IMG/VR virus record: IMGVR_UViG_3300028840_003424
Strand: one strand, 5' to 3'
DNA length: 62,799 nucleotides
Source of the DNA: a virus
This document shows positions 1-62,799 of this stretch, in pieces (position 1 is the first letter of the stretch; every line of letters starts with the position of its first letter). Below the pieces are notes generated by a model. It was not told the origin of the DNA and did not search any database. It saw nothing but the letters and a program-made list of their open reading frames with translations. The position numbers and the translations under genes are program-made.

Positions 1-144
1 GGTCGACGTGCCGGACGTGCAAAAGGTCGAGCGGAAAAAGCAGTAGTACCTTTTTCCTATTCCCCTTGCCCCGGTTCTGTGGTACAATTGGGGCATCAAA
101 ACCGAATCGAGAAAGAGAGGGTAACATGGAAATCACAGCAAAGC
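1..144. repeat. Terminal direct repeat, identical to 62656..62799 (circular-assembly overlap or terminal redundancy)
   Basis: Base-by-base identity of the first 144 nt with the last 144 nt of the window. Confidence 0.95.
80..88 (+). promoter_or_regulatory. Extended -10 promoter TGGTACAAT
   Basis: ccggttcTGTGGTACAATtgg, about 38 nt upstream of ATG 126; member of the recurring motif family. Confidence 0.6.
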
Positions 145-5644: not shown

Positions 5645-5735
5645 TATGTTACCGTGGCACCAAGGTACACGTAGGGCTTGTCAAGTAGTGTGTATCGCAC
5701 AATATCCGACCTGACACATTATTCGAGCGGTGACG

Positions 5736-5803
5736 AAAAATTTAGATCCATCATGATATATTCTTATAGATCTAAATTTTAGGGGCCGTACTACAGTACT
5801 AGT
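5736..5803. repeat. AT-rich palindromic element, copy 1
   Basis: AAAATTTAGATC (5737-48) / GATCTAAATTTT (5769-80), 20-nt spacer beginning CATCATG; 3' flank GTACTACAGTACTAG. Confidence 0.85.
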
Positions 5804-5864: not shown

Positions 5865-5894
5865 TTGCCATCCGCCCCGGTTTTGTGGTATACT
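5865..5894 (+). promoter_or_regulatory. Sigma70-type promoter (TTGCCA-18 nt-TGgTATACT)
   Basis: -35 TTGCCA at 5865-70, 18-nt spacer, extended -10 TGGTATACT at 5886-94; upstream of AGGAGG and ATG 5918. Confidence 0.65.
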
Positions 5895-5917: not shown

Positions 5918-6136
5918 ATGTTCATTCCCTTGTGGCCCAGACAGCCGGTCCCCTATGGCGTAGAGCGTCCCGATGGAACGTTCGAGGTCGTCACTGCTAC
6001 CCACTACCGCATAGACCGGTTTCAAAACCTGCATCTGTACATCGGTCAACATCAAGTCTCGCTGTTCAAGGTGGGGGAATGGCTCTATGCAGAAAGAGGT
6101 CTGACTGAGAAGGATGTAGACCAAAGGGGCATCTGA
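5918..6136 (+). CDS. Hypothetical protein
   Basis: ORF 5819..6136 trimmed to ATG 5918 (AGGAGG 7 nt upstream, downstream of the promoter at 5865-94). Confidence 0.5.
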   Translation: MFIPLWPRQPVPYGVERPDGTFEVVTATHYRIDRFQNLHLYIGQHQVSLFKVGEWLYAERGLTEKDVDQRGI

Positions 6137-8547: not shown

Positions 8548-8772
8548 ATGAGCCCACTGTCAGAGAACGCAACAAAAATCCGCTCATGGGAGGATGTTGC
8601 GCAGCGAATGCGCAATGCCACGAACGGAAGCAGGGGGGTATCGTTCGTGACCATCCGTGTCTTTTTGAACCAAGGCCGCCCGGTGGCCTGGATATCCCCA
8701 GAGGTACAGCACGTAGAGCCGAAAGGGGACGCCGCTGGCTTTGCAGAATGGCTTGAAACGCTCTGCACTTGA
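8548..8772 (+). CDS. Hypothetical protein
   Basis: ORF 8503..8772 trimmed to ATG 8548 (GAAAGG SD). Confidence 0.45.
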   Translation: MSPLSENATKIRSWEDVAQRMRNATNGSRGVSFVTIRVFLNQGRPVAWISPEVQHVEPKGDAAGFAEWLETLCT

Positions 8773-8798
8773 CAGCATGCGCAGAATCGTGGTACAAT
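8769..8798 (+). promoter_or_regulatory. Near-consensus promoter (TTGACA-18 nt-TGgTACAAT)
   Basis: -35 TTGACA at 8769-74, spacer 18, TGGTACAAT at 8790-98; best match to the sigma70 consensus in the window. Confidence 0.75.
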
Positions 8799-8804
8799 AG
8801 GCTT

Positions 8805-8972
8805 GCGGTGGCACTGACCTAAACTCGAAAGAGAGGTCAGACCGACGACTGCCGGCCTATAAGCCTATCCCCCCCCTAGCCTGGCCGGCAGTCTTACAAC
8901 ATAGAAACAATTTTAGAAGTGGCGTAGAAAGCGCGCTGTGTCCATATCGGGCACGGCGCGCTTTCGTGTTTA
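8805..8972 (+). ncRNA. Candidate structured leader or short non-coding RNA (three hairpins, ends in a terminator)
   Basis: No ORF. Hairpins at 8814-8840 (CTGACCT/AGGTCAG), 8847-8893 (GACTGCCGGCC/GGCCGGCAGTC) and 8927-8965 (GAAAGCGCGCUGUG/CACGGCGCGCUUUC), followed by GTGTTTAT. Confidence 0.45.
8927..8972 (+). terminator. Intrinsic terminator-like hairpin closing the 8805-8972 leader
   Basis: 14-bp GC-rich stem (one G-U pair) followed by a U-rich tail UUUCGUGUUUAU. Confidence 0.5.
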
Positions 8973-8987
8973 TGGGAGAGTACAGCT

Positions 8988-9476
8988 ATGGTTATGCCGT
9001 TGGATCCAGCTTGGGACGCTTACCCGAAAGGATGGGCGAACCCCCTGAATTTGCGTGTTTCCGCCGCTCTCCCCGCTGCGGGCGCGTGGGATGCTACGCC
9101 TGTAGAGCAAGTGCTTGCCGGTGCGCGCCAACTGACCCTTGCGTTTTCCTACACTCGCGGGGGCGCGGCTGGCGCGTTTGATTGGCAACTCGAGATCTCC
9201 CACTTCTCCGCTGCCGCTCTTGTGCCAGCCGGTGGGACAGAATGGTCTGTGGCCGATGCGATCTATGCGGCTGGCGCTGTTGTCGCCGGGGCGGATACGC
9301 AGAGCACGGTACAGCAAGAGTACCAGACCTACACGGCGACCGCTGCGGCCAAAGAGGCGTTTAGCGTCGGGCCGATCATCTTTAATGGTCCTGTTGAGCG
9401 CGTGCGGATCAACTGCCGGGAATCCGGCAACGTCGGCGCTCCGGGTACCTTGCAGGTTACGGGGATAGGAACATGA
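8988..9476 (+). CDS. Hypothetical virion-module protein
   Basis: GGGAGAG SD; Ala/Gly/Thr-rich, beta-rich-looking composition. Confidence 0.55.
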   Translation: MVMPLDPAWDAYPKGWANPLNLRVSAALPAAGAWDATPVEQVLAGARQLTLAFSYTRGGAAGAFDWQLEISHFSAAALVPAGGTEWSVADAIYAAGAVVAGADTQSTVQQEYQTYTATAAAKEAFSVGPIIFNGPVERVRINCRESGNVGAPGTLQVTGIGT

Positions 9477-14247: not shown

Positions 14248-15678
14248 ATGCAGAAGGTCAGGGGGTACAACACAATTCATCTTCCGATCGCGAGCATAGC
14301 ATCGTACCCGGATAGCCTGCAACCAGCGTTTGGGGCGCCCGCGCTTACCTTTGGCGACTTCTGCGCCCGCATTTCCGCTGACGGCGTGAACCTTTTGCGG
14401 GTCAAGCTGTGCGGACGCAGAGGGGACGCTGACGCTCTCCCTTTTGAGTACCAGACCGGTGTATACACCGACTGGAATGGGCAACTTCAAGAGATGGTAC
14501 AGGCGTGTACGGATCACGGCATAGGACTTTGGGTGATTCCGTTTGACAGTCGAGAGATGTCTAGCGAGTACGTTTGGAGCTACAATGCTTGGAATGCCAG
14601 CAATAGCGGCGGGTTCTTGGAGAATCCAACAGAGATGTTCACCAACCCCGCTGCTATTGACGCGATGAAGGACAGAATCAGGGCTATCATCGACTATGCT
14701 GGCCCCATCATCAAGGCGTGGGAAGTTTGCGCTGAAATGGTCTCTTTGATGACCCCTTATGTTTGGGGGACAGATTGGGCGGGGCTGACAACGGTCACAC
14801 GCGAGATCGCCGTTCCGTGGGTTGAGGAAATTGCACAGTACATCAAATCCGTTCACCCTGCACCAGTCGGAAACGGGCAAGTGTTTGGCGACCTGTCCGC
14901 GCCACGGAATGAGGTCTACCGGACGCCAAGCCTTGATTTTTGCTTGATCAACTGGTATGGAGACCGGGATGTCTCCGAAAAGTTCAAATGGCTGCGCGAC
15001 GTGCAAGCATGGGCGGGTATCCCGGTCTATGTAGAGCAGTATGCCCCTTGGGATCTCGGTGCCGAGGCGGACTATACGCGAGAGCCTGACACGTTTGCTT
15101 GGTCCAAGATGCATGAATGGATCGCTGTGTGTGGAGAGCATGGCCTTGTGGGGCCTTTGCGCTGGCCGGAGATCCGGCCAAGGAACCCGGATCAGTATGC
15201 CCTATGGTGGGGCATCGCACATCCGAACATGGCATCAATTGCAGGAGTTTCGGCAGAGTATGCCGCCCGTGTCGATCTGGAGGAATGGGACGGCCCTGGG
15301 CAAGCTTGGGACAGCCTGATCGTCTCTCCGGGCGCGGATCTCGTGTCCAGTTGGGGGGATGGTGCGCACGTGACCGCTTTTGCTCGATGGATCGAAAATG
15401 ACCGGCAGCTTGTTATTCACGGTCTCCGAGACGGCATCTATGATGTGCTGTGGTTCGGTTGGCTCTCTGGTACGTTAACCAAGGTGCAGAATTTTGAAGT
15501 GACCAGCGGGAGGTTGGCCCTAGACGAGCCGGTCCCGGCTGATTGCTCTGTGCTATACGTCTCATTGACCGATGTGCTCCCGCCGCCGCTGGACGAGGAA
15601 CGGGTACGCGAGATTGCGCGAGAAGAGGCGATCAGGGCCTTGAATGAAGCAGAGTTCACGGTAACTGTCCATGTCTAA
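14248..15678 (+). CDS. TIM-barrel glycoside-hydrolase-like protein
   Basis: ORF 13957..15678 trimmed to ATG 14248 (GAAAGG SD). Clan GH-A-like strand motifs (KAWEVCAEM, PVYVEQYAPW), but the acid/base NE is not canonical. Confidence 0.55.
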   Translation: MQKVRGYNTIHLPIASIASYPDSLQPAFGAPALTFGDFCARISADGVNLLRVKLCGRRGDADALPFEYQTGVYTDWNGQLQEMVQACTDHGIGLWVIPFDSREMSSEYVWSYNAWNASNSGGFLENPTEMFTNPAAIDAMKDRIRAIIDYAGPIIKAWEVCAEMVSLMTPYVWGTDWAGLTTVTREIAVPWVEEIAQYIKSVHPAPVGNGQVFGDLSAPRNEVYRTPSLDFCLINWYGDRDVSEKFKWLRDVQAWAGIPVYVEQYAPWDLGAEADYTREPDTFAWSKMHEWIAVCGEHGLVGPLRWPEIRPRNPDQYALWWGIAHPNMASIAGVSAEYAARVDLEEWDGPGQAWDSLIVSPGADLVSSWGDGAHVTAFARWIENDRQLVIHGLRDGIYDVLWFGWLSGTLTKVQNFEVTSGRLALDEPVPADCSVLYVSLTDVLPPPLDEERVREIAREEAIRALNEAEFTVTVHV

Positions 15679-22204: not shown

Positions 22205-22390
22205 ATGGACGCAAGAGCACAAAAACTCGCTATCAAGCTGAAAGACGCAGAAACCGCGCACGCTTTAGTGCGGGCCGGTTTCGACACTCCAGCCAAGATC
22301 AAACGGGCCAAGGACGCGGATCTGACCACTATCCCTGGCATCGGCAAAGCGCGCCTTGACAAGGTGCGCGCAAGGTGCCCACGGCAGTAG
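22205..22390 (+). CDS. Small helix-hairpin-helix protein
   Basis: HhH motif LTTIPGIGKARLDKV; the start could be 22187 or 22205. Confidence 0.5.
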   Translation: MDARAQKLAIKLKDAETAHALVRAGFDTPAKIKRAKDADLTTIPGIGKARLDKVRARCPRQ

Positions 22391-27209: not shown

Positions 27210-27262
27210 GACCGGGGTTGGCATGCGGGTAACTTCCCTGCTCGTGTGTCACCCCGGTTTTC
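27210..27262 (+). terminator. Putative terminator after the tail-tube candidate gene
   Basis: GACCGGGG..CCCCGGTT stem with a large, possibly branched loop, followed by TTTT. Confidence 0.3.
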
Positions 27263-27273
27263 ACGCCCGGAGA

Positions 27274-27295
27274 AAGGTATAAGGAAGGTATAAGC
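27274..27295. repeat. Tandem 11-bp direct repeat AAGGTATAAGG/AAGGTATAAGC
   Basis: Two adjacent units; an inverted partial copy CCTTATAC at 27354-61 lies on the other side of AT-rich element copy 2. Confidence 0.7.
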
Positions 27296-27296
27296 G

Positions 27297-27340
27297 AAAA
27301 ATTTAGATCCATCATGTATATTATAATGGATCTAATAAAC
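27297..27340. repeat. AT-rich palindromic element, copy 2 (degenerate right arm)
   Basis: AAAAATTTAGATCCATCATGTATATTATAATGGATCTAATAAAC; shares TTTAGATCCATCATG with copies 1 and 3. Confidence 0.75.
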
Positions 27341-37720: not shown

Positions 37721-37740
37721 CTTATTATAGATCTAAAATG
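37721..37740. repeat. AT-rich element, half copy (right arm only)
   Basis: CTTATTATAGATCTAAAATG resembles TTCTTATAGATCTAAATTTT of copy 1; abuts the terminator at 37741. Confidence 0.55.
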
Positions 37741-37777
37741 AAAAGAGCCCTTGCCGGTCATCGGCAAGGGCTCTTTT
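37741..37777. terminator. Bidirectional rho-independent terminator between convergent operons
   Basis: AAAAGAGCCCTTGCCG-GTCAT-CGGCAAGGGCTCTTTT: 16-bp perfect stem with A/T tracts on both sides; sits between the + stop at 37718 and the - stop at 37791. Confidence 0.9.
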
Positions 37778-38120: not shown

Positions 38121-38163
38121 CGTTTTTTCCTTTCGTGTGTGTGTTCTCATTTCCCCCAAGGCC

Positions 38164-38172
38164 ATTGTACCA
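38164..38172 (-). promoter_or_regulatory. Extended -10 promoter (TGGTACAAT on the minus strand)
   Basis: Reverse complement gtgTGGTACAATggccttggggg...cacacacgaaagg leads into the ATG at 38120. Confidence 0.65.
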
Positions 38173-38202
38173 CACAACCCCATGCTAGTCGATGGGACTT
38201 GG

Positions 38203-38263
38203 GTACTAACTTTTTGTCACTAGTACCCTAGTACTATGTGTAAAATGTTTGTAACCCTAGTAC
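38203..38263. promoter_or_regulatory. Cluster of CTAGTAC heptamers between divergent promoters (candidate operator array)
   Basis: GTACTA at 38203-08; CTAGTAC at 38220-26, 38228-34 and 38257-63. Confidence 0.5.
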
Positions 38264-38285
38264 CATTCCATGCATGGTGGTTACG

Positions 38286-38294
38286 TGGTACAAT
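38286..38294 (+). promoter_or_regulatory. Extended -10 promoter TGGTACAAT
   Basis: ttacgTGGTACAATgg, followed by the leader ...cacacgaaaggaaaaaacgATG (38339). Confidence 0.65.
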
Positions 38295-38338
38295 GGTTCT
38301 AGCGTTTGATAGGTTCAATCACACGAAAGGAAAAAACG

Positions 38339-39742
38339 ATGTTGACGGTAAAGGATCTGAAACGATTTTGCGGACGTGGTTATGCGCTCAAGAACATTGG
38401 GCGTAAGGTGTTTTGGTTCAAGGATCCCGAGAACGGATTGGCGCCGTTCTGGAGTGATGGTAGCATGACCATCTTTTCAGATGCCCCAAGCACGATCAAG
38501 CGTCGGGCGGAGGATCCGGCAAAGTGGCCCAAGTTGCCCCAGACGATCGCGCGGTTTTTGCCCAAGTTGATCAAGTCACTTACGCCGATCATGGTCGGGG
38601 CGCTCAAGAGCGAGACGGACGATATCTCCCATCTTTTGATGCTTGTCGATGCCGATGAGCAAGTCCACTTTTTGGATGCCCGACGCATTGCCATGGTGCT
38701 TGCATCGGATGACCCAGAAACGACGATCGCAGATCTCGAGTTTTTGACCGAAAACAAGGGCAAGGGCAAACCGATCCTTGTGAGAATCAACAAGCAAACC
38801 CGGGCGATCGTTGCGCAATGCGCGATCACGGGTGATTTTGAGTTTGATTCCCCTCACACTTATGTCTTTGCCGATGAGGCCGGCGCGGATGAGACCGGCG
38901 CGGATGAGACCGACGCCGATGAGACCGACGCCGATGAGACCGACGCCGATGAGGCCGACGCCGATGAGACCGACGCCGATGAGACCGACGCCGATGAGAC
39001 CGACGCCGATGAGACCGACGCCGATGAGACCCCAGAAGAACCATGGTGCACCGCAGACGATGCCCCAAGGCCCAAGCTTAAGGTCTGGAGAGCGATCAAA
39101 TCTTACCCACGTTTCACACTTGACGATGACGGGTACACTCTGTATACCGGGGCGATCAATCCCACCATGTATCAAGCAAAAACGCGCAAGTTTGAGTATA
39201 AGCCGGGGCGGGGCGGGTTTGCACATTCGATTTATGGATTGGTTGAAACGACCAACCATTTTGACGGGGCGGATGCCGACGCGATCGGTAACCCGTTCCA
39301 ATTCTCTTGGGACGATTGGAGCGAGTATACCTCAAGTCCAGAGTATACCCGTGGTCCTACGATGGGTGTCTGGTACATGGCCGATCGTGAAAATGGTCCC
39401 ACGGATACGGATTGGGCATATGCGGATGAGTTGGCACGTCAAGAACGGGTGATCGGTCTTTTGCTCATTGCCAAGCTTGCCGATGGTAGCATTTGGGGAT
39501 ACTTTTTGCCGGGGCGATCGCCAGATGTGCGCGATACGATGTGGGCCTACAAAACCAAGATCAAGGGCGCAAGCAAGACCAAGGCCAAGCCCGAGGCCGA
39601 TGAGCCCGAGGCCGATGAGCCCGAGGCCGATGAGCCCGAGGCCGATGAGCCCGAGGCCGATGAGCCCGAGGCCGATGAGCCCGAGGCCGATGAGCCCGAG
39701 GCCGACGCCGACGCGATCGCCTTGCCGGAAAAGGCAAGCTAA
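38339..39742 (+). CDS. Hypothetical protein with two acidic tandem-repeat tracts
   Basis: ATG 38339 after the conserved leader. (ADETD)n and (EADEP)n tracts encoded by 15-bp repeats. Confidence 0.7.
   Translation: MLTVKDLKRFCGRGYALKNIGRKVFWFKDPENGLAPFWSDGSMTIFSDAPSTIKRRAEDPAKWPKLPQTIARFLPKLIKSLTPIMVGALKSETDDISHLLMLVDADEQVHFLDARRIAMVLASDDPETTIADLEFLTENKGKGKPILVRINKQTRAIVAQCAITGDFEFDSPHTYVFADEAGADETGADETDADETDADETDADEADADETDADETDADETDADETDADETPEEPWCTADDAPRPKLKVWRAIKSYPRFTLDDDGYTLYTGAINPTMYQAKTRKFEYKPGRGGFAHSIYGLVETTNHFDGADADAIGNPFQFSWDDWSEYTSSPEYTRGPTMGVWYMADRENGPTDTDWAYADELARQERVIGLLLIAKLADGSIWGYFLPGRSPDVRDTMWAYKTKIKGASKTKAKPEADEPEADEPEADEPEADEPEADEPEADEPEADEPEADADAIALPEKAS
38870..39034 (+). 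repeat. In-frame 15-bp tandem repeat, about 11 units (GCCGATGAGACCGAC; peptide ADETD)
   Basis: Direct reading of consecutive 15-nt units with a few substitutions. Confidence 0.9.
39590..39709 (+). repeat. In-frame 15-bp tandem repeat, 7 full units plus 1 partial (CCCGAGGCCGATGAG; peptide PEADE)
   Basis: Seven identical consecutive units, then a diverged unit. Confidence 0.9.
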
Positions 39743-40553: not shown

Positions 40554-40697
40554 CTACCGTCGCCGCCTGGCCGCTGCCCGCCGCGATGCGGCGACCGCTC
40601 GACGCATCGCTCTTTCACGCGCAGCGTTCACGCCACCAAGCGCTCGACGCTCGCCCTCTTCTCTAGCCCTACGTGCGGCCCTGGAGGTTCCACCCAT
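40554..40697 (-). CDS. Possible 47-aa Arg/Ala-rich protein
   Basis: ATGA-coupled to the upstream gene's stop; fills the gap up to the terminator; below the ORF-track cutoff. Confidence 0.25.
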   Translation of the reverse strand: MGGTSRAARRAREEGERRALGGVNAARERAMRRAVAASRRAAARRRR

Positions 40698-41044
40698 CAG
40701 TTATCACCTGCCTTTTGCATCACTTTGGACATGGCGCGCTCTCCGCGCCGCGTCACTCGACTGGTAACCCATATAGCGTGGACGTTCTCTGGTACAGCCC
40801 CGGCGAATGAAAGCCGGAGATCCACGCCCCCACCGTAAAACAGCACGTTTTTAGGTTCTAGCGTCTCTAGCACCCGTTGCGCTGTACCGGTCAAGACGTT
40901 CAATCTACTCTTGTCTAGCTGCTGCGTGTGAATCTCGATTGCAATGCAGGGCGCTCCCTTTGGGATGCCCATAATGCTATACTCTACGCACTCCGCAGCG
41001 GCGATCTCGATGTCTGGGATAACGTATATCCCTGCCTCTTGCAT
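40697..41044 (-). CDS. C-terminal part of a DUF4417-like domain (downstream of an in-frame TGA)
   Basis: In the same frame as 41057..41914, separated by TGA plus 4 codons. GIYVIPDI...IMGIPKGAPCIAIE resembles the family's second half (from memory). Confidence 0.5.
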   Translation of the reverse strand: MQEAGIYVIPDIEIAAAECVEYSIMGIPKGAPCIAIEIHTQQLDKSRLNVLTGTAQRVLETLEPKNVLFYGGGVDLRLSFAGAVPENVHAIWVTSRVTRRGERAMSKVMQKAGDN

Positions 41045-41056
41045 GTAGCGGCCTAC

Positions 41057-41914
41057 TCACCGACGCTTGAATACCTGCATCAGGTTCAGCACGAGCGGAT
41101 CAGCGCCCCACATCGAATAGTTTGGCTCTACGGCAAGCTTGAATCCAGCGTTGAGCATTTTGGCAACGTACACATTAGGCTGCAAAAACCAGTTCTCAAA
41201 ACGGTAATCGTCCACGTAAAAGGCCAGCATAGCCCGGTCTATGTCGAGCCCTTTCATGCTGTCCGATCCGTAGCAGTACAACCAAGAGCCTTCCCATTCT
41301 GCATCTGACGCATCAGGGCCGGCCCAGATGTCTAGGGGCTCGGGGCACTCTGCGAGCATGTCAGGCTTGAGATCGGGGATGCCCATGATGTTGCTCGACT
41401 CAAAGTCCATCCAGGCCTTTAATGCAGAGGCTCCTGGCAACTCCGAACTGACATCATCCAAGCCTTGAGCGTCCTGTACTTCTTCCTCTGCGATCTGAAA
41501 TAGTTGCTTTAGCTGCTCCGGGTTCCACGCTTTGGACAGGTCAACGCCCTTTTCCCACTTGGCTTTGAGAGTCTTTGCGCTCCATTTGAGACCAGCGGCG
41601 GCAGTGGCATTGTCCAGAATGGCAAGCTCATCACGGCGCGGGTCGTCAGGGTCTAGATCCTCCCGCACGACGACCACATACTCGTCCCCTGTCGTCGCGA
41701 CCTCCACAACCTTGCGGATGCCCGCTCTTTTTGCTGCAACCAGACTCTTGTTTCCGGCCATCATGCGCCGACTGTTATCTGCCAGGCCGGAGCGACCGGC
41801 ACGCAAGGATCGCATGCTTTCATCGAGCATTTCACGCCCTGCCTTGGTGCCCTCATTGGCGTTTTCTGGGTCAAGGCTGTATTCCTCTATGGAATGCTCA
41901 GTGACCTTTGCCAC
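41057..41914 (-). CDS. ParB N-terminal-like domain plus the first part of a DUF4417-like domain
   Basis: ParB/Srx-like LDPENANEG...AGNKSLVAAKRAGIRKVVEV; FYVDDYRFENWF...EPNYSMW resembles DUF4417. Confidence 0.55.
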   Translation of the reverse strand: MAKVTEHSIEEYSLDPENANEGTKAGREMLDESMRSLRAGRSGLADNSRRMMAGNKSLVAAKRAGIRKVVEVATTGDEYVVVVREDLDPDDPRRDELAILDNATAAAGLKWSAKTLKAKWEKGVDLSKAWNPEQLKQLFQIAEEEVQDAQGLDDVSSELPGASALKAWMDFESSNIMGIPDLKPDMLAECPEPLDIWAGPDASDAEWEGSWLYCYGSDSMKGLDIDRAMLAFYVDDYRFENWFLQPNVYVAKMLNAGFKLAVEPNYSMWGADPLVLNLMQVFKRR

Positions 41915-45678: not shown

Positions 45679-45988
45679 AAATCAACTCCTGTATCTGTGC
45701 GCGCTCATACGTGCCCCACTTGCGTTTGGTCCACCTACGGCAGTAGTGCAGCCACACTCTAGGCGGCACCCCTTCGGATAAAGCAGCCTCTCCGAGCCGA
45801 TGGCGCAAACGTGCAGTTTCATCTTGCCCCGCTTGCATCCGCTCCCACTGGCGCCGATGCTTGCTGCATGTCGTCGCCTTGTCCGTGATCGGGATGTCGC
45901 AGATGGGACACGTTTTCCCTAGTTTGTGCTGATAGTTGTATGAGTGCTTGGCCTCCACGTATCGGTTGCGGATCCTCTTCTTGGTCAT
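45659..45988 (-). CDS. Hypothetical zinc-finger protein
   Basis: ORF trimmed to the ATG at 45988 (TGATG junction with the primase stop). CPICD...C..H. Confidence 0.45.
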   Translation of the reverse strand: MTKKRIRNRYVEAKHSYNYQHKLGKTCPICDIPITDKATTCSKHRRQWERMQAGQDETARLRHRLGEAALSEGVPPRVWLHYCRRWTKRKWGTYERAQIQELIYVYRHR

Positions 45989-46977
45989 CACGTCCGCCCT
46001 TCCATCAGCGCCCATGATAGGTCTGCTTTCTCCGGCGCGTCATCCGGCCACTTGTACAGTACGGCGTTTGCTCCGGCTTTGCGGAGCAGGTTGGCGACTC
46101 GCGGGCCGTTCGCCCTGGGCAGCTTTTTGGCCTTGGGGTGATCCAAAAACCATTTCTCTGCCAGCTTGGATAAAAGCTTTTCGTTCGGCGTGCCATGCAG
46201 GTCGTTGTCGTACCAGACGATCACCCGTCCCGGCTTTTGAGAAACAATCCATTTCGTCCACGAATCGCGCCAGGTACCCGCCCCACCGGTCGACGCTACA
46301 GCGATCACACGCGGCGTCTCTTGCATGGCGAACATCGCATCTACAGGGCTTTCGCACACAATCACAATCGCGTTTTCCTCGTAGGGGATCAGCGATCCGC
46401 CCCACAAGGTTACTCGAGATCCCGCCGCTTGGTGCCACTTTTGTTCACAGCCGCATCCGCCGACCTTGAGCACGCGACCACGAAAGGCCACGATCCGCCC
46501 CATGGCATCGTAGCAGGGGTAGATCAAGCGGTCGTGCCGGCAACTGCAAGACGGCAAGACGCCAACCCCAAGGCTCCAGGCTTGAATTGTATCGAGCGTG
46601 AACGGAACATAATCGTTCCACAGTTTTTGTGTCTTGGGATGGTTCGTGAAGGCGCTCAGTGTCTCTTCTGCGTGTTGTTGCCAAAAGTGCGGGCGATGCG
46701 TGACCTTGGCCTTGCGCTTTACAGGCTCCCGGTAGGGCTCTGTGGGCCTTGGCGTGCCTAGACGCTCTGTGAGGTCTTTCAGCCCGCCGTGCTCTTGGCA
46801 GATAAAGCAGTTCCAACCACGTGGGGAGTAAGAGCACTTTTTCCGGTGCGCCTCCGCCCCGCAGTTTGGGCAATCGATCCAGCGCTCGTCCTTTTCCCCT
46901 TCCGGCTCAACCCCTAGCTGGTCATCAAGCGCTTGCAGCCTCCGGCTCACCCATTGCAGTCTCGTCGGCTCGTCCAT
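45988..46977 (-). CDS. DNA primase (zinc finger + Toprim)
   Basis: CPNCG...CFIC zinc finger; Toprim IVIVCESPVDAMFA and VWYDNDLHG. Confidence 0.7.
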   Translation of the reverse strand: MDEPTRLQWVSRRLQALDDQLGVEPEGEKDERWIDCPNCGAEAHRKKCSYSPRGWNCFICQEHGGLKDLTERLGTPRPTEPYREPVKRKAKVTHRPHFWQQHAEETLSAFTNHPKTQKLWNDYVPFTLDTIQAWSLGVGVLPSCSCRHDRLIYPCYDAMGRIVAFRGRVLKVGGCGCEQKWHQAAGSRVTLWGGSLIPYEENAIVIVCESPVDAMFAMQETPRVIAVASTGGAGTWRDSWTKWIVSQKPGRVIVWYDNDLHGTPNEKLLSKLAEKWFLDHPKAKKLPRANGPRVANLLRKAGANAVLYKWPDDAPEKADLSWALMEGRT

Positions 46978-47692: not shown

Positions 47693-47892
47693 GTCTGTTC
47701 CTCCACGATCTTTAGGGCAAGATTGCCTTGCGCAACCTGTTCAAACGCCTCTGTGATAAAGTCGGACAGGCGATAGTCCTCACCGCCATGCTCCATGTCG
47801 TAGAGCATATCTTGCCAGGCGAGCGCGATCGCATTGTCGTTCTCCGCTGCATACTTTTCGACATCCTCTAGAGTCTTGAGTTTGATGATCAC
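47677..47892 (-). CDS. Hypothetical acidic protein
   Basis: ORF trimmed to a GTG overlapping the helicase stop (GTGA), with GGGAG upstream. Confidence 0.45.
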   Translation of the reverse strand: MIIKLKTLEDVEKYAAENDNAIALAWQDMLYDMEHGGEDYRLSDFITEAFEQVAQGNLALKIVEEQTCLID

Positions 47893-49634
47893 AGCCTCAA
47901 CTCCCTTCTGGCAAAAAAGTGGGTGATGGCTTGAGCAGCGCGGCCCTTGCTCATGCCCTCTTCCCAGACACCCAAGCGCTTGCACAGCGATTCTTGCTTT
48001 TCGCTTGCGCTCTGCTTGCGCCACTTGGCCGATTTTTTACCAAGTACGTCGATTTGATGCAAGATGCAGAAATCTTCTGCAGCCTCGCTTGCATCTTCCC
48101 ACGTCTCGTATGTGCCGATGTTTTCAGTGGGAGAGCGCTTTTTGATGTAGTAGAGCGAGAACCGAGCGGCACGGCGCAGCCGTTCATACTCGCGATTGTA
48201 GGCCGGTTTCCAGTGTTCCGTGCCGCGTAGCTCATCGGCTCTTTCCAGCCGGGATAGCGCAACCTCATCCGGCATGGTGATCGCCAGCGTTCCGCCTTCC
48301 CCCACGGTCGCGCTTGCCAACACCCCGTCAAAGGTCCAGGCCAGTCGGCTTGACGTGAGATAGTCCAAGACCTCGACAACGATCTCGTCAGGGTCACCGT
48401 CAACGCCTTCACCTTTCGAGTTGATGCCAAACGCGCCCAAGATCACGCCAGAATCCGCGCCCTTTTCCTCAGCCTCTCGTTGTTCCTTGGGCTTGCCCAA
48501 CATATCCCCGGCTTGCAGGATGTCCCGATCCCCGTCCGGCACAAAGTCAAGGATCGTCGCTACCTGCTTGCCGGGGTAGACGCGCAGCGCCCGGCCCATC
48601 ATCTGCATGTAGACCAGATCCGACTTGGTTGGGCGGACCTGCACCAGGCACTCGATCTGGGGGGCGTCAAACCCCTCAGTCCAGAGCGCACAGTTGACCA
48701 CACCGGTCGTCTCTCCGCTCTTGAATCGTCTCAGGATCGCTTGCCGTTCTGCCTTTGGCGTGGTTCCATCCGCTGACTCGAACGCATACCCGGCCTCTCT
48801 GAATCGAGCAGCGAGTGAGTGGGCTTGTGCGACGGATGCCGTAAAGCAGATCGTCGGCTTGCCCTTACAGTGCTCTTCCCACTCTGCAATGACCAGATCC
48901 TCCGCGTTCCGTGCTTTCAGCACGTCGCCTAGTTCCTCATCGTCCCACCCGGCGCCCACGCGCCGAACGTTCGAGATGTTGACAGGGAGACGGAATCCGA
49001 GCGCCACAAACGGACACAGCGCGCCGCTCTTGATGCTTTTCTTGATGCCCATGCGATAGGCGACAGAATCATAGACGCGGCTCAGTCCGTCTCCATCCGT
49101 GCGCCTTGGGGTAGCAGTGACGCCAAGGTGCCGGATCTCCGGGTTGTGCTCTTTGAGCCGCGTGTACACGTCCAGGTAAGAGGGGGCAACGGAGTGATGG
49201 GCCTCGTCAGTGATCACGTGCGTGATCTTGCCGTGGGCAAAGATGCGATCCAGCCGCCTGTTTGCGTTCAAGGTCTGGATGGTCGCGATCACGACCTTGC
49301 AGCCGGCCATGTTCTCGTCCGCCATGACGACCCCGACGTCCGCGAGTTCAGGGAAAAACTTCAAGATGCGATCGCGGGGTTGGTAAATCAGTTCTTGCCG
49401 GTGGGCGATGACGAGCGCCCGGTCCTCTGGCCCAAGGTGTCGGGCCAGCGCGGCAAGAAAGATGATCGTCTTGCCGGTCCCGGTGGACAGCGCGGCAAGC
49501 GTCCACTTGCCATGATCCCACTCGGAGCAGATAGACGACACTGCCTCTTCTTGGTAGGGGCGGAGCGTCAGGGGCTCAAAGGTCAAGTTTAGACGTTCCG
49601 CGTCCGCTGTACCGTCAAATAGTGTTCTTTGCAT
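47889..49634 (-). CDS. SF2 DEAH-box DNA helicase
   Basis: Motif I STGTGKT, II VITDEAHH, III VTATP, VI QMMGRALR. Confidence 0.85.
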   Translation of the reverse strand: MQRTLFDGTADAERLNLTFEPLTLRPYQEEAVSSICSEWDHGKWTLAALSTGTGKTIIFLAALARHLGPEDRALVIAHRQELIYQPRDRILKFFPELADVGVVMADENMAGCKVVIATIQTLNANRRLDRIFAHGKITHVITDEAHHSVAPSYLDVYTRLKEHNPEIRHLGVTATPRRTDGDGLSRVYDSVAYRMGIKKSIKSGALCPFVALGFRLPVNISNVRRVGAGWDDEELGDVLKARNAEDLVIAEWEEHCKGKPTICFTASVAQAHSLAARFREAGYAFESADGTTPKAERQAILRRFKSGETTGVVNCALWTEGFDAPQIECLVQVRPTKSDLVYMQMMGRALRVYPGKQVATILDFVPDGDRDILQAGDMLGKPKEQREAEEKGADSGVILGAFGINSKGEGVDGDPDEIVVEVLDYLTSSRLAWTFDGVLASATVGEGGTLAITMPDEVALSRLERADELRGTEHWKPAYNREYERLRRAARFSLYYIKKRSPTENIGTYETWEDASEAAEDFCILHQIDVLGKKSAKWRKQSASEKQESLCKRLGVWEEGMSKGRAAQAITHFFARRELRL

Positions 49635-51471: not shown

Positions 51472-51480
51472 ATTGTACCG
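51472..51480 (-). promoter_or_regulatory. -10-like element (CGGTACAAT on the minus strand)
   Basis: Reverse complement ggtttcgCGGTACAATagagg, followed by the leader ...acacgaaaggcggagcaATG (51427). Confidence 0.45.
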
Positions 51481-51514
51481 CGAAACCTACCCCGACTCAA
51501 TAGTACTCTAGTAA

Positions 51515-51586
51515 CCCCCCTAAAATTTAGATCCATCATGTAAGATCTTATAGATCTAAATTTTAGGGGGAGTACTACAGTACTAC
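51515..51586. repeat. AT-rich palindromic element, copy 3 (best copy)
   Basis: 18-bp perfect inverted repeat CCCCCTAAAATTTAGATC (51516-33) / GATCTAAATTTTAGGGGG (51553-70), 19-nt spacer CATCATGTAAGATCTTATA; 3' flank AGTACTACAGTACTAC. Confidence 0.9.
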
Positions 51587-53695
51587 CTAGTCTTGAACGG
51601 GCTCTAGTATCCAGGTCGTCCGCCCATGGTCTGGAGAAAGACGCCGGTTGACTCTGGCCCACTGCTTGACCCGCGCCCGCTCTTGCGAGTGTTGGGCGAT
51701 GTAGAATAGCCAGCGCTGTGCCGTGACGGTCGACGTCGCGACGTCCGCAGCCTCCGCGATCTGCTCTTTTGTGAGATAGGGTACGCATGCGTCCCACTGC
51801 TCGTCAAGCCATTCTCGCAGCAGGAGCCACTTTTCCCACGTAACCCCCTCGTAGTAGGGCCGGCCAGTCTTGGTTTCCTTGCGCTCTCTGGATGGTGCCA
51901 GCCACGTGTCGTTGAGATTGGAAAAGATGCCGTCAAGGGGCTCGTCAGTCGGCAGAGAGGTCAAGAGCCACACGTCAGAGGGTTTGATGTTGGGCCTGAC
52001 CCGGTGTACGGCTTGGGTGATCTCGTTGCGCCGAAACTCTTCCAGCACAACCCGCAGATGCGGATCGCTCCAAAACCCGGAGATATCACGAACAGGGTAG
52101 CCCCTTGGATCCGGATCCTTCAACCTGTACTCCCGCTCTTTGCGCGTCCATGGCGGAGGCTTGCCCTCTTCTATGAAGGATTCCATCCGGTCAGGGAAGA
52201 TGCTTGCGGCAAGATCCATCACTCCGCCAGTATTCGGACAGAACCCACCGGCCACGATCAGAGCGTCGGCGCTCTCCAGGTCGTTGGTGCCCCGGATGTC
52301 TCCAAAGTGGCGTGTGTTTCCGTTGAACCGGGGCACTGCTTCAAATTCCGGCTTTGCAGCCTTGAACGTGACGACGGCTACACGCTTGCCTGGATAGTCG
52401 TCCGCGATAATCTGGGCGACGTCGAGCATTTGCCGCCCCTTCTTGCTCAGTTTCTTTTCTCCGTTCACCCCCTCGAACGCGCCGCCCATGCCGTTCAGTC
52501 GGCCCACGATCTGGAAGATGCGCCCCGGCCTTTCGACGGTCGGAGCATACAGCAAGACGTCACGATCAAAAAGGGCTTTGTACATCTCTGGGGATCCGGT
52601 TGCGTCCAGGCAGATCAGAGGGCAGCTTTTCGACCAGCGGTCTTTTGCGTTGTGCCGGGAGAGGATGAGCAGACCGTCGCGGCTGACTCTCACTCTCGAG
52701 ATCCAACGTGTCCATCCGCTCTTCCAGCACGTGAACTCTGGAGAGAGGGCAAGCAGCAGGTCTTGCACGTACCAAAAGGGCGCATTGTGGACCTCTCCAG
52801 GCGTGTCGATGATCGGGATATGGGGGATCCATTCTCCAAGGTTCTCTTGCTCGTCGTACACTGCCGCCAGATCGTTACCGATCATACTAAACAGCTTTGG
52901 CCCCCAGAGGGGAGCGGTCGCCCGGCTTGCCAGGTATTCTAGCCCGTCAAGCAAGCGCTTCAAGGCCCCTTGGGCGCCGGGAACGACGATCGACTTGGGG
53001 GGTACCCACTGCTTTTTGAGGAACGCGCCGAGCGGCATTTCGTCGCAGAATCCACACCAGTAGTCAGAGATCGCCATGCCGGTGATCAGGTGTTGGTGCA
53101 TTCCAAAGATGATCCGCTCCTTGCGCCGGGCTTGCAGCCGGTAGGGGCAGTTGGAGAGATAGCCATCATGGTTGCACAGCGCTTTACATAGGTCGATCGA
53201 CGGGTACCCGCGGTTCAACCAGGACATCATCTCCGGTGCATACCTGCACATGTCGTAAGCTTCCCCTCCGCCCAACGTGTGGGCAAAGGGCAGCCATTCA
53301 TACCACTTTGACCAGTCAAAACCCTTGGTGCCCGCGATGTCGGCAAAAAAGTCATGGCGTGGACCTGCATAGAGGATACGGCCTCTCTCTGCAAGGTCTT
53401 GTGCGGCCTCGACCGCAGCGGTGGTCTTGCCCACGCCAGGGGGAACGCGCACAAGCAAAAGCCGGGGATCCGCTGACTCTACATAGTCTAGGATCGCCCG
53501 GCTGATCCCCTCTCTTACCTCGTCCAGAGGCAAGGGAGGGGGATGCTCGTCAAGCGTCGTTTTATCAGTCCACCCCAGATCGTAGGTGGACGGCTTGTCC
53601 GTCCACCATTCCGGTTCAGGGGGTATCCCATACGCTTGCTCGTCGTGTTCCCTTTTTTGCCGCAGGGCGTCAAGGAAGTCGTCAATGATGGTCAC
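51587..53695 (-). CDS. P-loop helicase-like protein with a 4-Cys cluster (possibly Rad3/XPD/DinG-like)
   Basis: Walker A PPGVGKTT; four Cys (C-x19-C-x3-C-x8-C) before a DE motif CGFCDEMP; late motifs GTNDLESADALIVAG and QAVHRVRP. Confidence 0.5.
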   Translation of the reverse strand: MTIIDDFLDALRQKREHDEQAYGIPPEPEWWTDKPSTYDLGWTDKTTLDEHPPPLPLDEVREGISRAILDYVESADPRLLLVRVPPGVGKTTAAVEAAQDLAERGRILYAGPRHDFFADIAGTKGFDWSKWYEWLPFAHTLGGGEAYDMCRYAPEMMSWLNRGYPSIDLCKALCNHDGYLSNCPYRLQARRKERIIFGMHQHLITGMAISDYWCGFCDEMPLGAFLKKQWVPPKSIVVPGAQGALKRLLDGLEYLASRATAPLWGPKLFSMIGNDLAAVYDEQENLGEWIPHIPIIDTPGEVHNAPFWYVQDLLLALSPEFTCWKSGWTRWISRVRVSRDGLLILSRHNAKDRWSKSCPLICLDATGSPEMYKALFDRDVLLYAPTVERPGRIFQIVGRLNGMGGAFEGVNGEKKLSKKGRQMLDVAQIIADDYPGKRVAVVTFKAAKPEFEAVPRFNGNTRHFGDIRGTNDLESADALIVAGGFCPNTGGVMDLAASIFPDRMESFIEEGKPPPWTRKEREYRLKDPDPRGYPVRDISGFWSDPHLRVVLEEFRRNEITQAVHRVRPNIKPSDVWLLTSLPTDEPLDGIFSNLNDTWLAPSRERKETKTGRPYYEGVTWEKWLLLREWLDEQWDACVPYLTKEQIAEAADVATSTVTAQRWLFYIAQHSQERARVKQWARVNRRLSPDHGRTTWILEPVQD

Positions 53696-58281: not shown

Positions 58282-58290
58282 ATTGTACCA
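58282..58290 (-). promoter_or_regulatory. Extended -10 promoter (TGGTACAAT on the minus strand)
   Basis: Reverse complement gtttcgTGGTACAATggccc...cacacgaaagggcgcaaaATG (58237). Confidence 0.65.
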
Positions 58291-58374
58291 CGAAACACAC
58301 CTTGAGTATATAGCTCTATAGTACCAGAACGGATTTTCTAGTACCCTAGAGCTATTGAGTGACTATACCTTTCG

Positions 58375-58383
58375 TGGTACAAT
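58375..58383 (+). promoter_or_regulatory. Extended -10 promoter TGGTACAAT
   Basis: cctttcgTGGTACAATggccttggggggaacgagaatacacacacgaaagggg...ATG (58430); near-duplicate of the cassette at 38164. Confidence 0.65.
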
Positions 58384-58429
58384 GGCCTTGGGGGGAACGA
58401 GAATACACACACGAAAGGGGCAAGGCCAA

Positions 58430-59785: not shown

Positions 59786-59794
59786 AGTGTACCA
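59786..59794 (-). promoter_or_regulatory. Extended -10 promoter (TGGTACACT on the minus strand)
   Basis: Reverse complement ctttcgTGGTACACTatagg; faces the hairpin at 59724-59757. Confidence 0.45.
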
Positions 59795-59861
59795 CGAAAG
59801 ACAGGCGAATGCAAGGGCAAAAACCTAGTACTTTTTTCCTATTGAGCGCAAAGGGGTTATG

Positions 59862-59870
59862 TGGTACCAT
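59862..59870 (+). promoter_or_regulatory. Extended -10-like promoter TGGTACCAT
   Basis: ggttatgTGGTACCATagaggcatcacacgaaaggg, upstream of ATG 59919. Confidence 0.5.
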
Positions 59871-62520: not shown

Positions 62521-62701
62521 TTCTGCTCTTGTTGAGACTTTGCGCGCCAAGGCCGAATCCCTGCTTGACAAGATGGAAGGCATGACCAAGCCAAGCCCGT
62601 AGCACTCTGCTGCTCTATCCGTTCTGGCCGACATCGAGCACGAGATCGGGCGACTGGTCGACGTGCCGGACGTGCAAAAGGTCGAGCGGAAAAAGCAGTA
62701 G
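62513..62701 (+). CDS. Small helical protein interrupted by an in-frame TAG (62600-62602)
   Basis: A 29-codon ORF continues in the same frame for 32 more protein-like codons (HSAALSVLADIEHEIGRLVDVPDVQKVERKKQ) with no start of its own. Confidence 0.35.
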
Positions 62702-62799
62702 TACCTTTTTCCTATTCCCCTTGCCCCGGTTCTGTGGTACAATTGGGGCATCAAAACCGAATCGAGAAAGAGAGGGTAACATGGAAATCACAGCAAAGC
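62656..62799. repeat. Second copy of the 144-nt terminal repeat
   Basis: Identical to 1..144, including the promoter at 80-88 and the ATG at 126. Confidence 0.95.

Follow-up and report, generated by a model that had tools for sequence, protein, structure and literature searches.

In an uncultivated phage, a short AT-rich palindrome marks three junctions between gene modules; judging from its sequence it looks like a DNA-level control site that is recognised by a protein, not like an RNA hairpin. Tentatively, and at somewhat less than an even chance, the best explanation is that the element constitutes a promoter-operator cassette without a -35 box; a terminator, a processing site and a mobile element are disfavoured. 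The window, meaning the whole stretch of 62,799 nucleotides that was analysed, is a complete phage-like genome (62.6-kb, ~57% GC).

The best copy (locus B, core 51516-51570) contains a perfect 18-bp inverted repeat, CCCCCTAAAATTTAGATC (51516-51533) and GATCTAAATTTTAGGGGG (51553-51570), around a 19-nt spacer, and the repeat stretches to 43-nt arms with 84% complementarity (51494-51536 and 51550-51592). The conserved 11-bp half-sites of this copy are TTTAGATCCAT (51526-51536) and ATAGATCTAAA (51550-51560), 13 nt apart, and the 702-aa gene beside it encodes an XPD/DinG-like Fe-S helicase. Copy 1 (locus A, 5734-5780), located between the TerL/82-aa genes and the portal operon, has half-sites at 5741-5751 and 5766-5776 with a 14-nt spacer. 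Copy 2 (locus D, 27295-27336) has them at 27302-27312 and 27326-27336 with a 13-nt spacer, and is located with a 519-aa BNR-repeat gene on one side and, on the other, a 227-aa gene that is the first of the tail-side genes; a 922-aa protein encoded downstream of it displays tape-measure similarity. A half copy consisting of the right half-site ATAGATCTAAA only (37727-37737) is placed directly 3' of the last structural gene's stop codon and borders a canonical bidirectional terminator (37741-37777), and the window lacks a locus C copy.

In the genome TTTAGATCCATCATG has three exact matches (5741, 27302 and 51526), each of them on the + strand; if up to three mismatches are allowed, the count is seven against 1.18 expected, a number reached by none of 100 shuffles, and TATAGATCTAAATTTT has seven matches against 0.05 expected. 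The 7-mers TTAGATC and GATCTAA occur seven times in total, only in the element copies and the half copy, and genome-wide the three copies are the only 40-nt segments with 11 or fewer G+C. A previous sequence-only reading had described four AT-rich islands between transcription units of a GC-rich genome, all in the same plus-strand orientation. Its coordinates, arms and spacer for the best copy were confirmed by a sequence check, while other parts of that description required adjustment: the fourth island is the half copy, and the genome, at ~57% GC, is moderately GC-rich only. All four sites are intergenic, in a genome with ~10% intergenic DNA, but the term 'operon boundary' was overstated as most operon boundaries in the window have no element; the structural-region copies may lie inside one long late operon. 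The common orientation holds in this genome and, relative to gene direction, is not conserved in relatives; among the unidirectional cases, four of five point at the downstream gene.

A search of related phages located the core at the same junctions in a sister lineage, whose proteins are 62-87% identical to those of the window, as a 38-bp version; its 10 complete instances, distributed over four syntenic junctions, are 100% identical. The 11-bp arms (TTTAGATCCAT) are identical between the window and the sister lineage and the half-site spacing is conserved, being 12-14 bp across lineages. In a third lineage both-sided arm changes preserve the dyad, and altogether six of 15 arm pairs are changed on both sides, with a covariation score that 0 of 500 shuffles reach; these changes are not decisive for an RNA helix because a protein dyad predicts the same. 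The linkers next to the sister-lineage core and the N4 of its flanking boxes vary whereas the core is invariant: of the 10 instances, only 2-6 keep complementarity between a left and a right linker position, except for one conserved C/G column (9/10), and 3-8 keep it at the N4 positions. Across lineages the arms read TTTAGATCCAT or TTTAGTTTGAT, and they are absent in the L057 and L147 lineages, which have no AT palindrome at all at locus B. Copies inside one genome are more alike than syntenic counterparts between genomes. Conserved half-sites, a maintained dyad and constant spacing are the features of a palindromic operator; they sustain the earlier proposal that the symmetric arms are the conserved part, and are compatible with a binding site for a dimeric protein.

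A directional core, arm-CATG(A)-TAnnnT, recurs in several lineages in a cross-lineage alignment, and its conservation reaches deeper than that of the palindrome. ATCATGATAT (TG-A-TAT...) is common to copy 1 of the window, L058/L059 and L061, including lineages in which the adjacent helicase is only ~50% identical, which bears out the previous remark that a hairpin does not explain the conserved CATCATG. L061 keeps arm-CATGA-TATCAT and is missing the second arm. In the best copy, the conserved CATG (51537-51540) is followed immediately by TAAGAT (51541-51546, + strand), within the palindrome TAAGATCTTA; copy 1 displays an extended -10 arrangement on the + strand, with TG (5754-5755), A and TATATT (5757-5762), and the sense strand of copy 2 carries TATATT (27317-27322) and a consensus TATAAT (27322-27327). 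The hexamers at the -10-like position (TATATT, TATATT, TAAGAT, TATATT on both strands, TATCAT and TATATA) have invariant T1 and A2, T6 in all except TATATA, and variable positions 3-5. The extended -10 motif is exact in copy 1 (TG-A-TATATT) and L061 (TG-A-TATCAT); L058 has TG-A-TATATA, i.e., without the -7 T, in copy 2 and the best copy the TG directly adjoins the hexamer, one base too close, and the sister-lineage core has no TG and carries TATATT plus TATAAT on both strands. No -35 hexamer was found 16-18 bp upstream of the core hexamers, where the sequence reads CGAAAA or CTAAAA, and no core is among the promoters listed by a sigma-70 consensus scan of the genome.

The sister-lineage cores are accompanied by perfect TAGTAC-N4-GTACTA boxes, 8 bp away on each side, in a fixed geometry (8-bp linkers, 69-70 bp from box start to box start), and a TAGTAC box is also found upstream of most promoters of the phage, which are of the sigma-70 type. 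In the window, the best copy has a right box, GAGTACTACAGTACTA (51570-51585), with one mismatch, and a degenerate left box, TAGTACTCTAGTAACC (51501-51516), which doubles as the upstream 16-mer of a leftward canonical promoter located directly beside this copy (TTGAGT-N17-TACAAT, 51472-51500, - strand) and predicted to drive the genes 51427-50375 (-). Copy 1 has a single degenerate box on its right, CCGTACTACAGTACTA (5786-5801, two mismatches), followed by a T6 run, with the canonical promoter of the portal operon at 5865-5894; copy 2 has no flanking boxes. Canonical promoters already adjoin copy 1 and the best copy, and the promoter scan found none between copy 2 and the 227-aa/922-aa genes and no good one at loci C and D of the sister lineage. 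A 3' flank attributed earlier to 'copies 1 and 3', a numbering that is ambiguous, is exactly shared as GTACTACAGTACTA at 5788 (the 5.7-kb copy) and 51572 (the best copy), although it is not specific to the element because it is a copy of the box upstream of most phage promoters. TGn before the -10 hexamer recurs in the canonical promoters of the phage, e.g., GTGGTACAAT, a recurrence that the genome promoter scan cannot test since it required TGn. Among unrelated viral contigs with pairs of TAGTAC-N4-GTACTA, some (e.g., L063 and L086) have a sigma-70 promoter between the boxes.

The flanking boxes share with the cyanobacterial-type LexA box (AGTACWNWTGTACT / RGTACNNNDGTWCB; PMC3091678) the outer pentamers AGTAC...GTACT, which are identical, and a base before GTAC that is never C; they differ in their G/C-rich inner positions, which mostly do not fit WNWT. 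A LexA PWM gave 9-17 bits for these boxes; across 41 published sites the median score is 17.2 and the highest 21.8. Placement of the box hexamer upstream of the -35 at most phage promoters is not typical of LexA, and the boxes are doubtful as bona fide cyanobacterial LexA sites, their match being below the consensus. Sites for NtcA (GTA-N8-TAC), sigma-54 (GG-N10-GC) and IHF (WATCAANNNNTTR), compared by eye only, did not fit.

The core thus consists of two 11-bp half-sites (TTTAGATCCAT) placed 12-14 bp apart with an AT-rich centre between them, where a -10-type hexamer (TAnnnT) follows a half-site by 4-5 nt, often with TG before it. It can be proposed that this is a sigma-70-type promoter with no -35 box. 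The half-sites would then lie at about -28 to -18 and, on the opposite side, over the start region, and may bind a dimeric regulator, maybe phage-encoded, acting either as a repressor that occludes the promoter or as an activator that replaces the -35 element. In the sister lineage, with arm-5 nt-TATATT on both strands, the cassette would fire both ways, and the boxes, an operator-like motif of ordinary phage promoters, would be located at about +17 to +32 of each predicted start. In the window the arrangement is intact on the + strand only; in copy 1 it points at the portal module and in copy 2 at the tail-side genes, and the intact arrangement of the best copy points back, antisense, into the helicase gene.

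Some observations bear on the promoter reading from either side. Strong AT-richness is confined to the cores, which melt more easily than any other part of the genome, and copy 2 is placed after a hairpin with a U run and before the 227-aa/922-aa genes, which have no canonical promoter; both speak for it. Against it, TAnnnT is easily found by chance in AT-rich DNA, the cores have no -35 match, the arrangement in the best copy is antisense to the helicase, and conservation is stronger in the arms than in the -10-like hexamer, so that a role of the arms unrelated to initiation is possible. Half-site centres ~24-25 bp apart, unusual for a simple dimer, speak against the operator reading. Two more specific roles were tried and rejected, namely a phased activator site for the portal promoter, as the spacing between GTGGTATACT and the core is not conserved (108 bp for the window, 115 bp for L009, more for L116), and late promoters ahead of head, tail and lysis operons, as the genes after the best copy, having no transmembrane segments, are not a lysis cassette.

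In the classical repressor-operator design a palindromic operator lies over the promoter, e.g., the LexA boxes over -10 or +1, or Arc/Mnt at P22 immI. The element is similar in that its dyad half-sites bracket the -10/start region, with further operators a few turns away; unlike these operators, its half-site centres are ~24-25 bp apart, it has no -35, and the cassette is present at 3-4 dispersed junctions. Bidirectional promoters, as Warman et al. reportedly described in 2021, arise from -10 symmetry. The opposite-strand -10 hexamers of the sister lineage likewise overlap in AT-rich symmetric sequence (TATATT, 2 bp offset); however, here the symmetry extends to the 11-bp arms and the boxes, and the predicted starts are ~21 bp apart, not 18 bp. 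Halovirus class I/II IRs of the HF1/HF2 group are AT-rich intergenic sequences at transcript boundaries that are reported to carry functional promoter elements (PMC7230728), and the element resembles them as a prominent AT-rich repeat in a virus of ~55-57% GC, conserved among relatives and strategically placed with respect to transcripts. Conversely, those IRs are archaeal with TATA/BRE-type promoters while here the layout is bacterial, with -35/extended -10 promoters and Shine-Dalgarno sites; neither palindromy nor operator boxes are described there (PMC7230728), and no sequence relationship is expected.

Beyond this phage group, no copies were found among the viral, metagenomic and genomic contigs searched. 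In IMG/VR, an exact 17-mer had six matches, all by chance, in contigs of 30-40% GC, the L058-type pattern gave only chance matches, and gapped core patterns detected L033 as the only true relative; the gapped patterns detected no true relative in GTDB genomes. INPHARED contains no near match, the best TerL match in public collections is 32% identical, portal- and helicase-based locus searches in IMG/VR returned no close relatives, and the only relatives from a profile search, at 31-34% identity, carry different regulatory repeats. The HIP1 sequence (GCGATCGC) is ~8-fold over base composition and not over the Markov expectation, a host clue too weak for naming a host. Pfam and PHROGs were silent for most small proteins of the window, and among ~60 window proteins scanned no HTH repressor or activator was recognised, the only DNA-binding-type hits being an HHH protein (22205-22390) and a TerS-like HTH protein (3354-3920).

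It is possible, though unlikely, that the element is a pure protein-binding junction site without promoter activity, at which a phage regulator, or else a nucleoid/bending protein of the host, would be bound by the arms together with the TAGTAC boxes; the same small probability covers its variants, a roadblock/insulator at module boundaries or an architectural bend or loop between the two boxes. Such a site, which would resemble stoperators or IHF-containing RIP/BIME-1 elements, agrees with the conserved sequence and spacing of the arms, the maintained dyad and the fixed box geometry; the likeness of copies within a genome would fit co-evolution with a genome-specific protein, and if the structural-region copies are inside one late operon, a removable roadblock would make sense. 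Mycobacteriophage stoperators are dispersed intergenic repressor sites of 13-14 bp, asymmetric, oriented with transcription, present in dozens per genome and bound by a monomer, which co-evolve with the phage's own regulator and act at places other than early promoters (PMC9283540, PMC6550527). The element shares with them its dispersed intergenic location in a phage genome, and differs in being palindromic and 35-45 bp long, in having 3-4 copies and in an orientation versus genes that is not conserved. What a junction site leaves unexplained is the deeper conservation of the directional ATCATGATAT / TAnnnT core, which in L061 survives without the second arm and is kept in copy 2 without boxes and in copy 1 with one degenerate box; in addition, the scanned window proteins include no recognised binding protein. 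A DNA unwinding element or cruciform site, serving replication initiation at multiple origins or terminase recognition at multiple pac sites, is decidedly improbable. T4 and T7 are phages with multiple origins and P1 pac is GATC-rich; we take the element to resemble P1 pac and the oriC 13-mers, and we know of no precedent for multiple pac sites. The strong AT-richness confined to the cores, together with (AT)n-type centres and nested palindromes, would favour melting and cruciform extrusion, GATC motifs are kept in lineages with a related core (three TGATCA hexamers in L061), several lineages (L058, L061 and L150 among them) have AT-rich palindromes, of differing sequence, after their helicase gene, and copy 1 adjoins terminase genes in a genome that encodes the TerS-like protein. 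However, three of the four loci are in the structural region, L057 and L147 do without the palindrome at locus B, no element-specific iterons were found, the flanking boxes being general promoter motifs, and an origin beside an initiator gene was rejected as the 702-aa protein at locus B is a helicase of the XPD/DinG type and not an origin-binding initiator. It is equally doubtful, to about the degree of a replication or packaging site, that the core and its two boxes would form a two-fold symmetric 'junction module' of ~90-110 bp, an undescribed class of phage cis-element in which an easily melted, cruciform-prone palindrome, occupied by its own phage protein wherever two major modules meet, does more than start transcription; it might link the insulation of transcription units to replication or packaging that begins at multiple sites or, alternatively, be a hotspot that keeps modules exchangeable between phages.

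It is highly unlikely that the element acts in RNA, be it through bidirectional intrinsic termination, RNase III processing or 3' stabilisation. Its predicted folds are far more stable than shuffled sequence (-46 and -57 kcal/mol for the best copy, z = -8 and -10 vs shuffles; -52 kcal/mol for L009, ~-20 for copy 1, -13 and -20 for copy 2), the arms in the window are bracketed by AAAA...TTTT, the elements are located after stop codons, and a terminator scan lists copy 2. Stability is nevertheless accompanied by variable outer columns of the long palindrome that are not kept complementary, and the arm sequence is conserved with little free covariation. The stems are AU-rich (three G/C positions in the 11-bp arms, a single G-C pair in 11 in L058), with a C·A mismatch on the sense strand in copy 1 and the best copy. 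No U-tract is conserved: a T5 run is found only 3' of copies 1 and 2 on the - strand, i.e., after their antisense strand, the AAATTTT of the window version is part of the stem, and on either strand the core of the sister lineage has the order TTTT-arm...arm-AAAA. Elsewhere the same genome uses canonical terminators that are GC-rich and have a U-tract, including right beside copy 2 and the half copy; one of them, a GC-rich hairpin followed by a U run (27210-27261, + strand, -34 to -41 kcal/mol, z = -3.7), lies ~35 nt upstream of copy 2 and is likely the real terminator of the genes upstream of it. Loci C and D are followed by capsid and tail genes that are essential and lack a good promoter, and Rfam contains no family that matches at gathering score. 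A short terminated RNA starting from the core was also rejected, as the downstream segments fold no better than shuffles (z -0.6 to -1.6). The terminator and processing hairpin suggested by the sequence-only reading are therefore disfavoured for their missing U-tract, AU-rich stems and uncompensated outer palindrome, and its miniature mobile element fares no better. There is very little probability that the element is a selfish miniature inverted repeat (MITE, Correia-like), spreading among the genomes of these phages without serving any host-directed function. E. coli RIP/BIME-1 are IHF-containing intergenic palindromic elements, chromosomal and present in hundreds of copies. The Correia repeat-enclosed elements of Neisseria are intergenic, palindromic and ~100 bp long, with outward promoter-like ends, and are chromosomal and mobile, with hundreds of copies and TA duplications (PMC2649163). 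The element is like both in its central AT-rich or IHF-type segment, outward promoter-like ends (in the sister lineage) and potential RNA hairpins, and unlike them in being phage-borne, syntenic and duplication-free with 3-4 copies. Mobility would agree with the variable presence (no copy at locus B of L057 or at locus C of the window, and only half of one at another site), with the homogenised copies, and with similarity that drops or breaks near elements: across locus D protein identity falls from 87% to 66%, and ~50 nt beyond the element L058 diverges from L059. Against it stand the syntenic position of every copy in lineages diverged to 62-87% protein identity, the absence of a target-site duplication when filled locus B (L056 and the window) is compared with the empty one (L057), the confinement of copies to this phage group in the contigs searched, and arms under purifying selection over a long divergence.

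Should the element prove to be an origin, a recombination hotspot or a site of cruciform formation, it would be even more unusual than a promoter-operator cassette. If the promoter-operator reading is correct, this phage group would have, beside its box-plus-sigma-70 promoters, a second, very different promoter class that is AT-rich, -35-less and palindromic and that is found where the portal, capsid and tail modules begin as well as after the helicase gene. In a clade with ~90% of its genes unannotated, it would also help to annotate transcription units and temporal control from sequence, and would point to a putative regulator recognising TTTAGATCCAT. The conservation pattern, in which the core is invariant, the spacers are free, the copies are homogenised and the arm changes are compensated, would represent a clean case for the co-evolution of a regulator and its sites.

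The AT-rich palindromic element has three copies in the window, copy 1 (5734-5780), copy 2 (27295-27336) and the best copy, copy 4 (51516-51570). The last carries the perfect 18-bp inverted repeat around a 19-nt spacer that the sequence-only reading had described, in exactly that position, and the repeated core, TTTAGATCCATCATG, occurs exactly three times in the window, always on the + strand. When up to 3 mismatches were allowed, 7 matches were found vs 1.18 expected, and a chance occurrence of the right-hand motif is similarly improbable. The 7-mers TTAGATC and GATCTAA are confined to the three copies and to a half copy at 37727-37737. As had been noticed, the copies are AT-rich islands (the only strongly AT-rich 40-nt segments of a genome with ~57% GC), and all occurrences are intergenic, with intergenic DNA representing ~10% of the genome.

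The genome is complete and circularly assembled (62,655 bp, bases 1-144 being a repeat of 62656-62799), and no near relative was found among deposited phages. Genes of the + strand extend from ~58.4 kb across the map origin to 37.7 kb, and - strand genes from 58.2 to 40.7 kb; they include the large terminase TerL (3917-5383), the portal (6136-7914), a 922-aa protein with tape-measure similarity, a primase (45988-46977) and an SF2 helicase (47889-49634). The gene at 38339-39742 contains two arrays of 15-nt tandem repeats (38840-39064 and 39566-39730) encoding the acidic pentapeptides ADETD and ADEPE. DUF4417 is split over two adjacent - strand ORFs (40697-41044 and 41057-41914), its N-terminal part in the upstream and its C-terminal part in the downstream one, which could reflect a frameshift, an interruption or a truly split gene. 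The commonest 8-bp palindrome is the cyanobacterial HIP1 sequence GCGATCGC (12 copies; base composition predicts 1.5 and a Markov model 13.8), and CGTACG is absent (7.4 expected); these counts may give a weak hint on the host and its restriction systems.

Relatives were retrieved with two protein queries, the portal and the 702-aa protein encoded beside copy 4, followed by contig look-ups. A sister lineage originating from the same metagenome series (identity of 62% for the portal, 79% for TerL, 74% for the 702-aa and 87% for the 519-aa protein) bears the element at the same junctions as the window, namely between TerL and the portal operon (locus A; L009, L116), after the 702-aa gene (locus B; L056, L092/L095, L114, L131) and between the 519-aa and 227-aa genes (locus D; L096/L109, L099). 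A fourth site, locus C, lies ahead of the capsid-side genes (L093, L128), and at this position the window has, instead of the element, an extra 476-aa gene without family match (14248-15678), placed exactly at the junction. The element junctions may thus be hot spots of gene gain and loss. All 10 complete unique instances from the sister lineage share an unchanged 38-bp core, TTTTAGATCCATAAGAATATATTATAATGGATCTAAAA, and perfect TAGTAC-N4-GTACTA boxes stand on both sides, 8 bp off the core, in all of these except L116, which lacks the left box; linkers, box N4 and outer flanks vary. A 4.5-kb metagenome contig (L012) begins at the exact first base of the core (TTTTAGATCCAT...), most likely an assembly break at the repeat.

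Farther away, locus B retains only the box and promoter in L057 (65% identity), has no palindrome in L147 (53%), shows TTTTTTAGTTTGATCATGATATATATATGAAACTAAAAAA in L058/L059 (51%) and TTTTTAGTTTGATCATGATATCATGATCA in L061 (50%), and contains two unrelated AT-rich palindromes in L150 (45%). L058 (2780-2900) and L059 (4900-5000) share an identical 707-aa helicase and the same palindrome and diverge completely ~50 nt further on, where tail genes in convergent orientation follow in one contig and a co-directional gene in the other. The divergence marks either a mosaic breakpoint adjoining the element or an assembly chimera. Searched for in IMG/VR, JGI metagenomes and GTDB genomes, the element was confined to this phage group. 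It is a real, conserved and clade-specific cis-element.

Arm sequence is kept across lineages, which agrees with the proposal that the symmetric arms are probably the functional part. Two arm positions are altered on both sides in L058 (A·T to T·A and C·G to T·A); counting all copies, both-sided changes affect 6 of the 15 arm pairs, 88.9% of cells pair, and the observed covariation score was reached by no shuffle. Half-site spacing is constant at 12-14 bp. The suggested folding check showed that a larger palindrome folds at -46 to -57 kcal/mol, but its variable positions are not maintained: out of 10 instances, 2-6 are complementary at the linker columns, save one conserved C/G column (9/10), 3-8 at the box N4 columns and 0-9, mostly low, at the outer-flank columns. 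The long hairpin is therefore a by-product of adjacent palindromic motifs, and the conservation pattern, as read from the alignments, is that of a recognised DNA sequence. The uniform orientation reported earlier holds within the window, where CATCATG is on the left of the + strand in all three copies, but not in the sister lineage, whose asymmetric centre reads in the sense direction at loci A, B and C and in the antisense direction at D. Compared by eye, its orientation matches that of the window at B and is flipped at A and D, so the centre can invert, consistent with a near-symmetric functional unit.

A terminator or processing hairpin, as had been considered, is disfavored by several features. 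On either strand of the sister-lineage core the stem is preceded by TTTT and followed by AAAA, so there is no conserved U-tract; stems are AU-rich, and the sense strand of copies 1 and 4 has a C·A mismatch. True terminators, GC-rich and ending in a U-tract, are present elsewhere (8927-8965 and 37741-37777), a strong GC-rich hairpin followed by a U run is located just upstream of copy 2 (27210-27261), and at loci C and D no good canonical promoter stands between the element and the essential structural genes that follow. No match to the element was found in Rfam. The idea of a miniature mobile element likewise did not hold, as copies are syntenic across deep divergence, number only 3-4 per genome and were absent elsewhere in the databases searched, and no duplication is visible at filled vs empty sites. 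A protein site other than a promoter (roadblock or architectural) and a site that melts or forms a cruciform in replication or packaging are possible, and an RNA hairpin is so to a lesser degree. An origin at locus B beside an initiator gene was also considered and lost its main support, given that the neighbouring 702-aa protein (51587-53695, - strand), without Pfam or PHROG match, fits an XPD/DinG-like SF2 helicase in a confident model (pLDDT 91; best Foldseek match 3crv, E = 3e-12) and has four invariant cysteines (C150, C170, C174 and C183) that would fit an Fe-S cluster.

In the ordinary promoters of the phage a 16-mer TAGTAC-N7-CTA precedes a -35 hexamer, which is followed by 17 bp, mostly with (TTTC)GTGG at the end, and by a TACAAT-like hexamer. 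This stereotyped arrangement is found at 10 sites or more on both strands, e.g. 44-88 (+), 44995-44931 (-), 50377-50330 (-) and 57650-57605 (-), with divergent pairs at 58282-58383, 59786-59870 and 38164-38300. The 3' flank noted as shared between copies is present but is not element-specific, being a general promoter motif of this phage. The left flank of copy 4 is the upstream 16-mer of a leftward promoter (51500-51472, - strand), and its right flank a box with one mismatch (51570); perfect palindromic boxes occur at 38221, 50362 and 61846. In the divergent regions at ~38.2 and ~58.3 kb the -35 elements are separated by 2-3 boxes, as in a genetic switch, and a 45-nt promoter/5'-UTR segment is present in inverted duplicate (38129-38173 and 58374-58418, 93% identity); a 5'-UTR motif, CACGAAAGG, recurs ahead of many start codons. 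The box resembles the cyanobacterial LexA box, AGTACWNWTGTACT (PMC3091678), and scores below typical LexA sites. Canonical versions flank sigma-70 promoters in some unrelated IMG/VR contigs: loci L062-L088 (33-64% GC) have pairs or arrays of TAGTACATTTGTACTA, the maximum score on the cyanobacterial LexA matrix, on both sides of the promoter in, e.g., L063 and L086, which could represent widespread LexA-type or LexA-mimicking control of phage promoters. A near-consensus promoter (8769-8798, TTGACA-N18-TGGTACAAT) is followed by a leader of ~130 nt and, at 8927-8965, by the GC-rich hairpin directly before the SD/ATG of gene 8994 and a ~29-kb structural block. This layout (8769-8993), kept in the sister lineage (L009 7360-7590), is similar to PR'-tR' of lambda and suggests that the late genes are controlled by antitermination or attenuation.

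For the element itself, a protein-recognised promoter-operator cassette at module junctions is tentatively proposed as the likeliest reading, at somewhat less than even likelihood. In the alignment a directional unit, arm, CATG(A) and a TAnnnT hexamer, is conserved more deeply than the palindrome. The hexamer is TATATT in copy 1, with TG exactly at -15/-14, TATATT and TATAAT in copy 2, TAAGAT in copy 4, TATCAT in L061, again with TG-A and with the second arm absent, and TATATA in L058; the sister-lineage central AATATATT gives arm, 5 nt and TATATT on both strands. T1 and A2 are invariant and T6 is present in all except TATATA, the middle being variable; these three are key positions of a -10 element. 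TGn ahead of the -10 recurs in ordinary promoters of the phage (e.g., GTGGTACAAT), copy 2 has a terminator-like hairpin on one side and the tail-side genes on the other, a place at which a promoter would be expected, and in 4 of 5 unidirectional cases the unit faces the gene downstream. One arm would be placed at about -28 to -18 and the other across the start region, a geometry suited to an operator occluding the promoter or to an activator that takes over from the missing -35. The flanking boxes of the sister lineage would fall just downstream of each putative start, as in the box-promoter-box layout of some unrelated viral contigs. Against this proposal, the putative promoter has no -35, TG is mis-spaced or missing in several copies, TAnnnT readily turns up by chance in DNA rich in AT, copy 4 is directed into the helicase gene, canonical promoters already adjoin copies 1 and 4, and no cognate binding protein was identified. 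The closest conceptual precedent is found in the haloviruses HF1 and HF2, with AT-rich intergenic repeats that bear promoters (PMC7230728). The element adds a variant to the phage regulatory repeats, which are a known kind.
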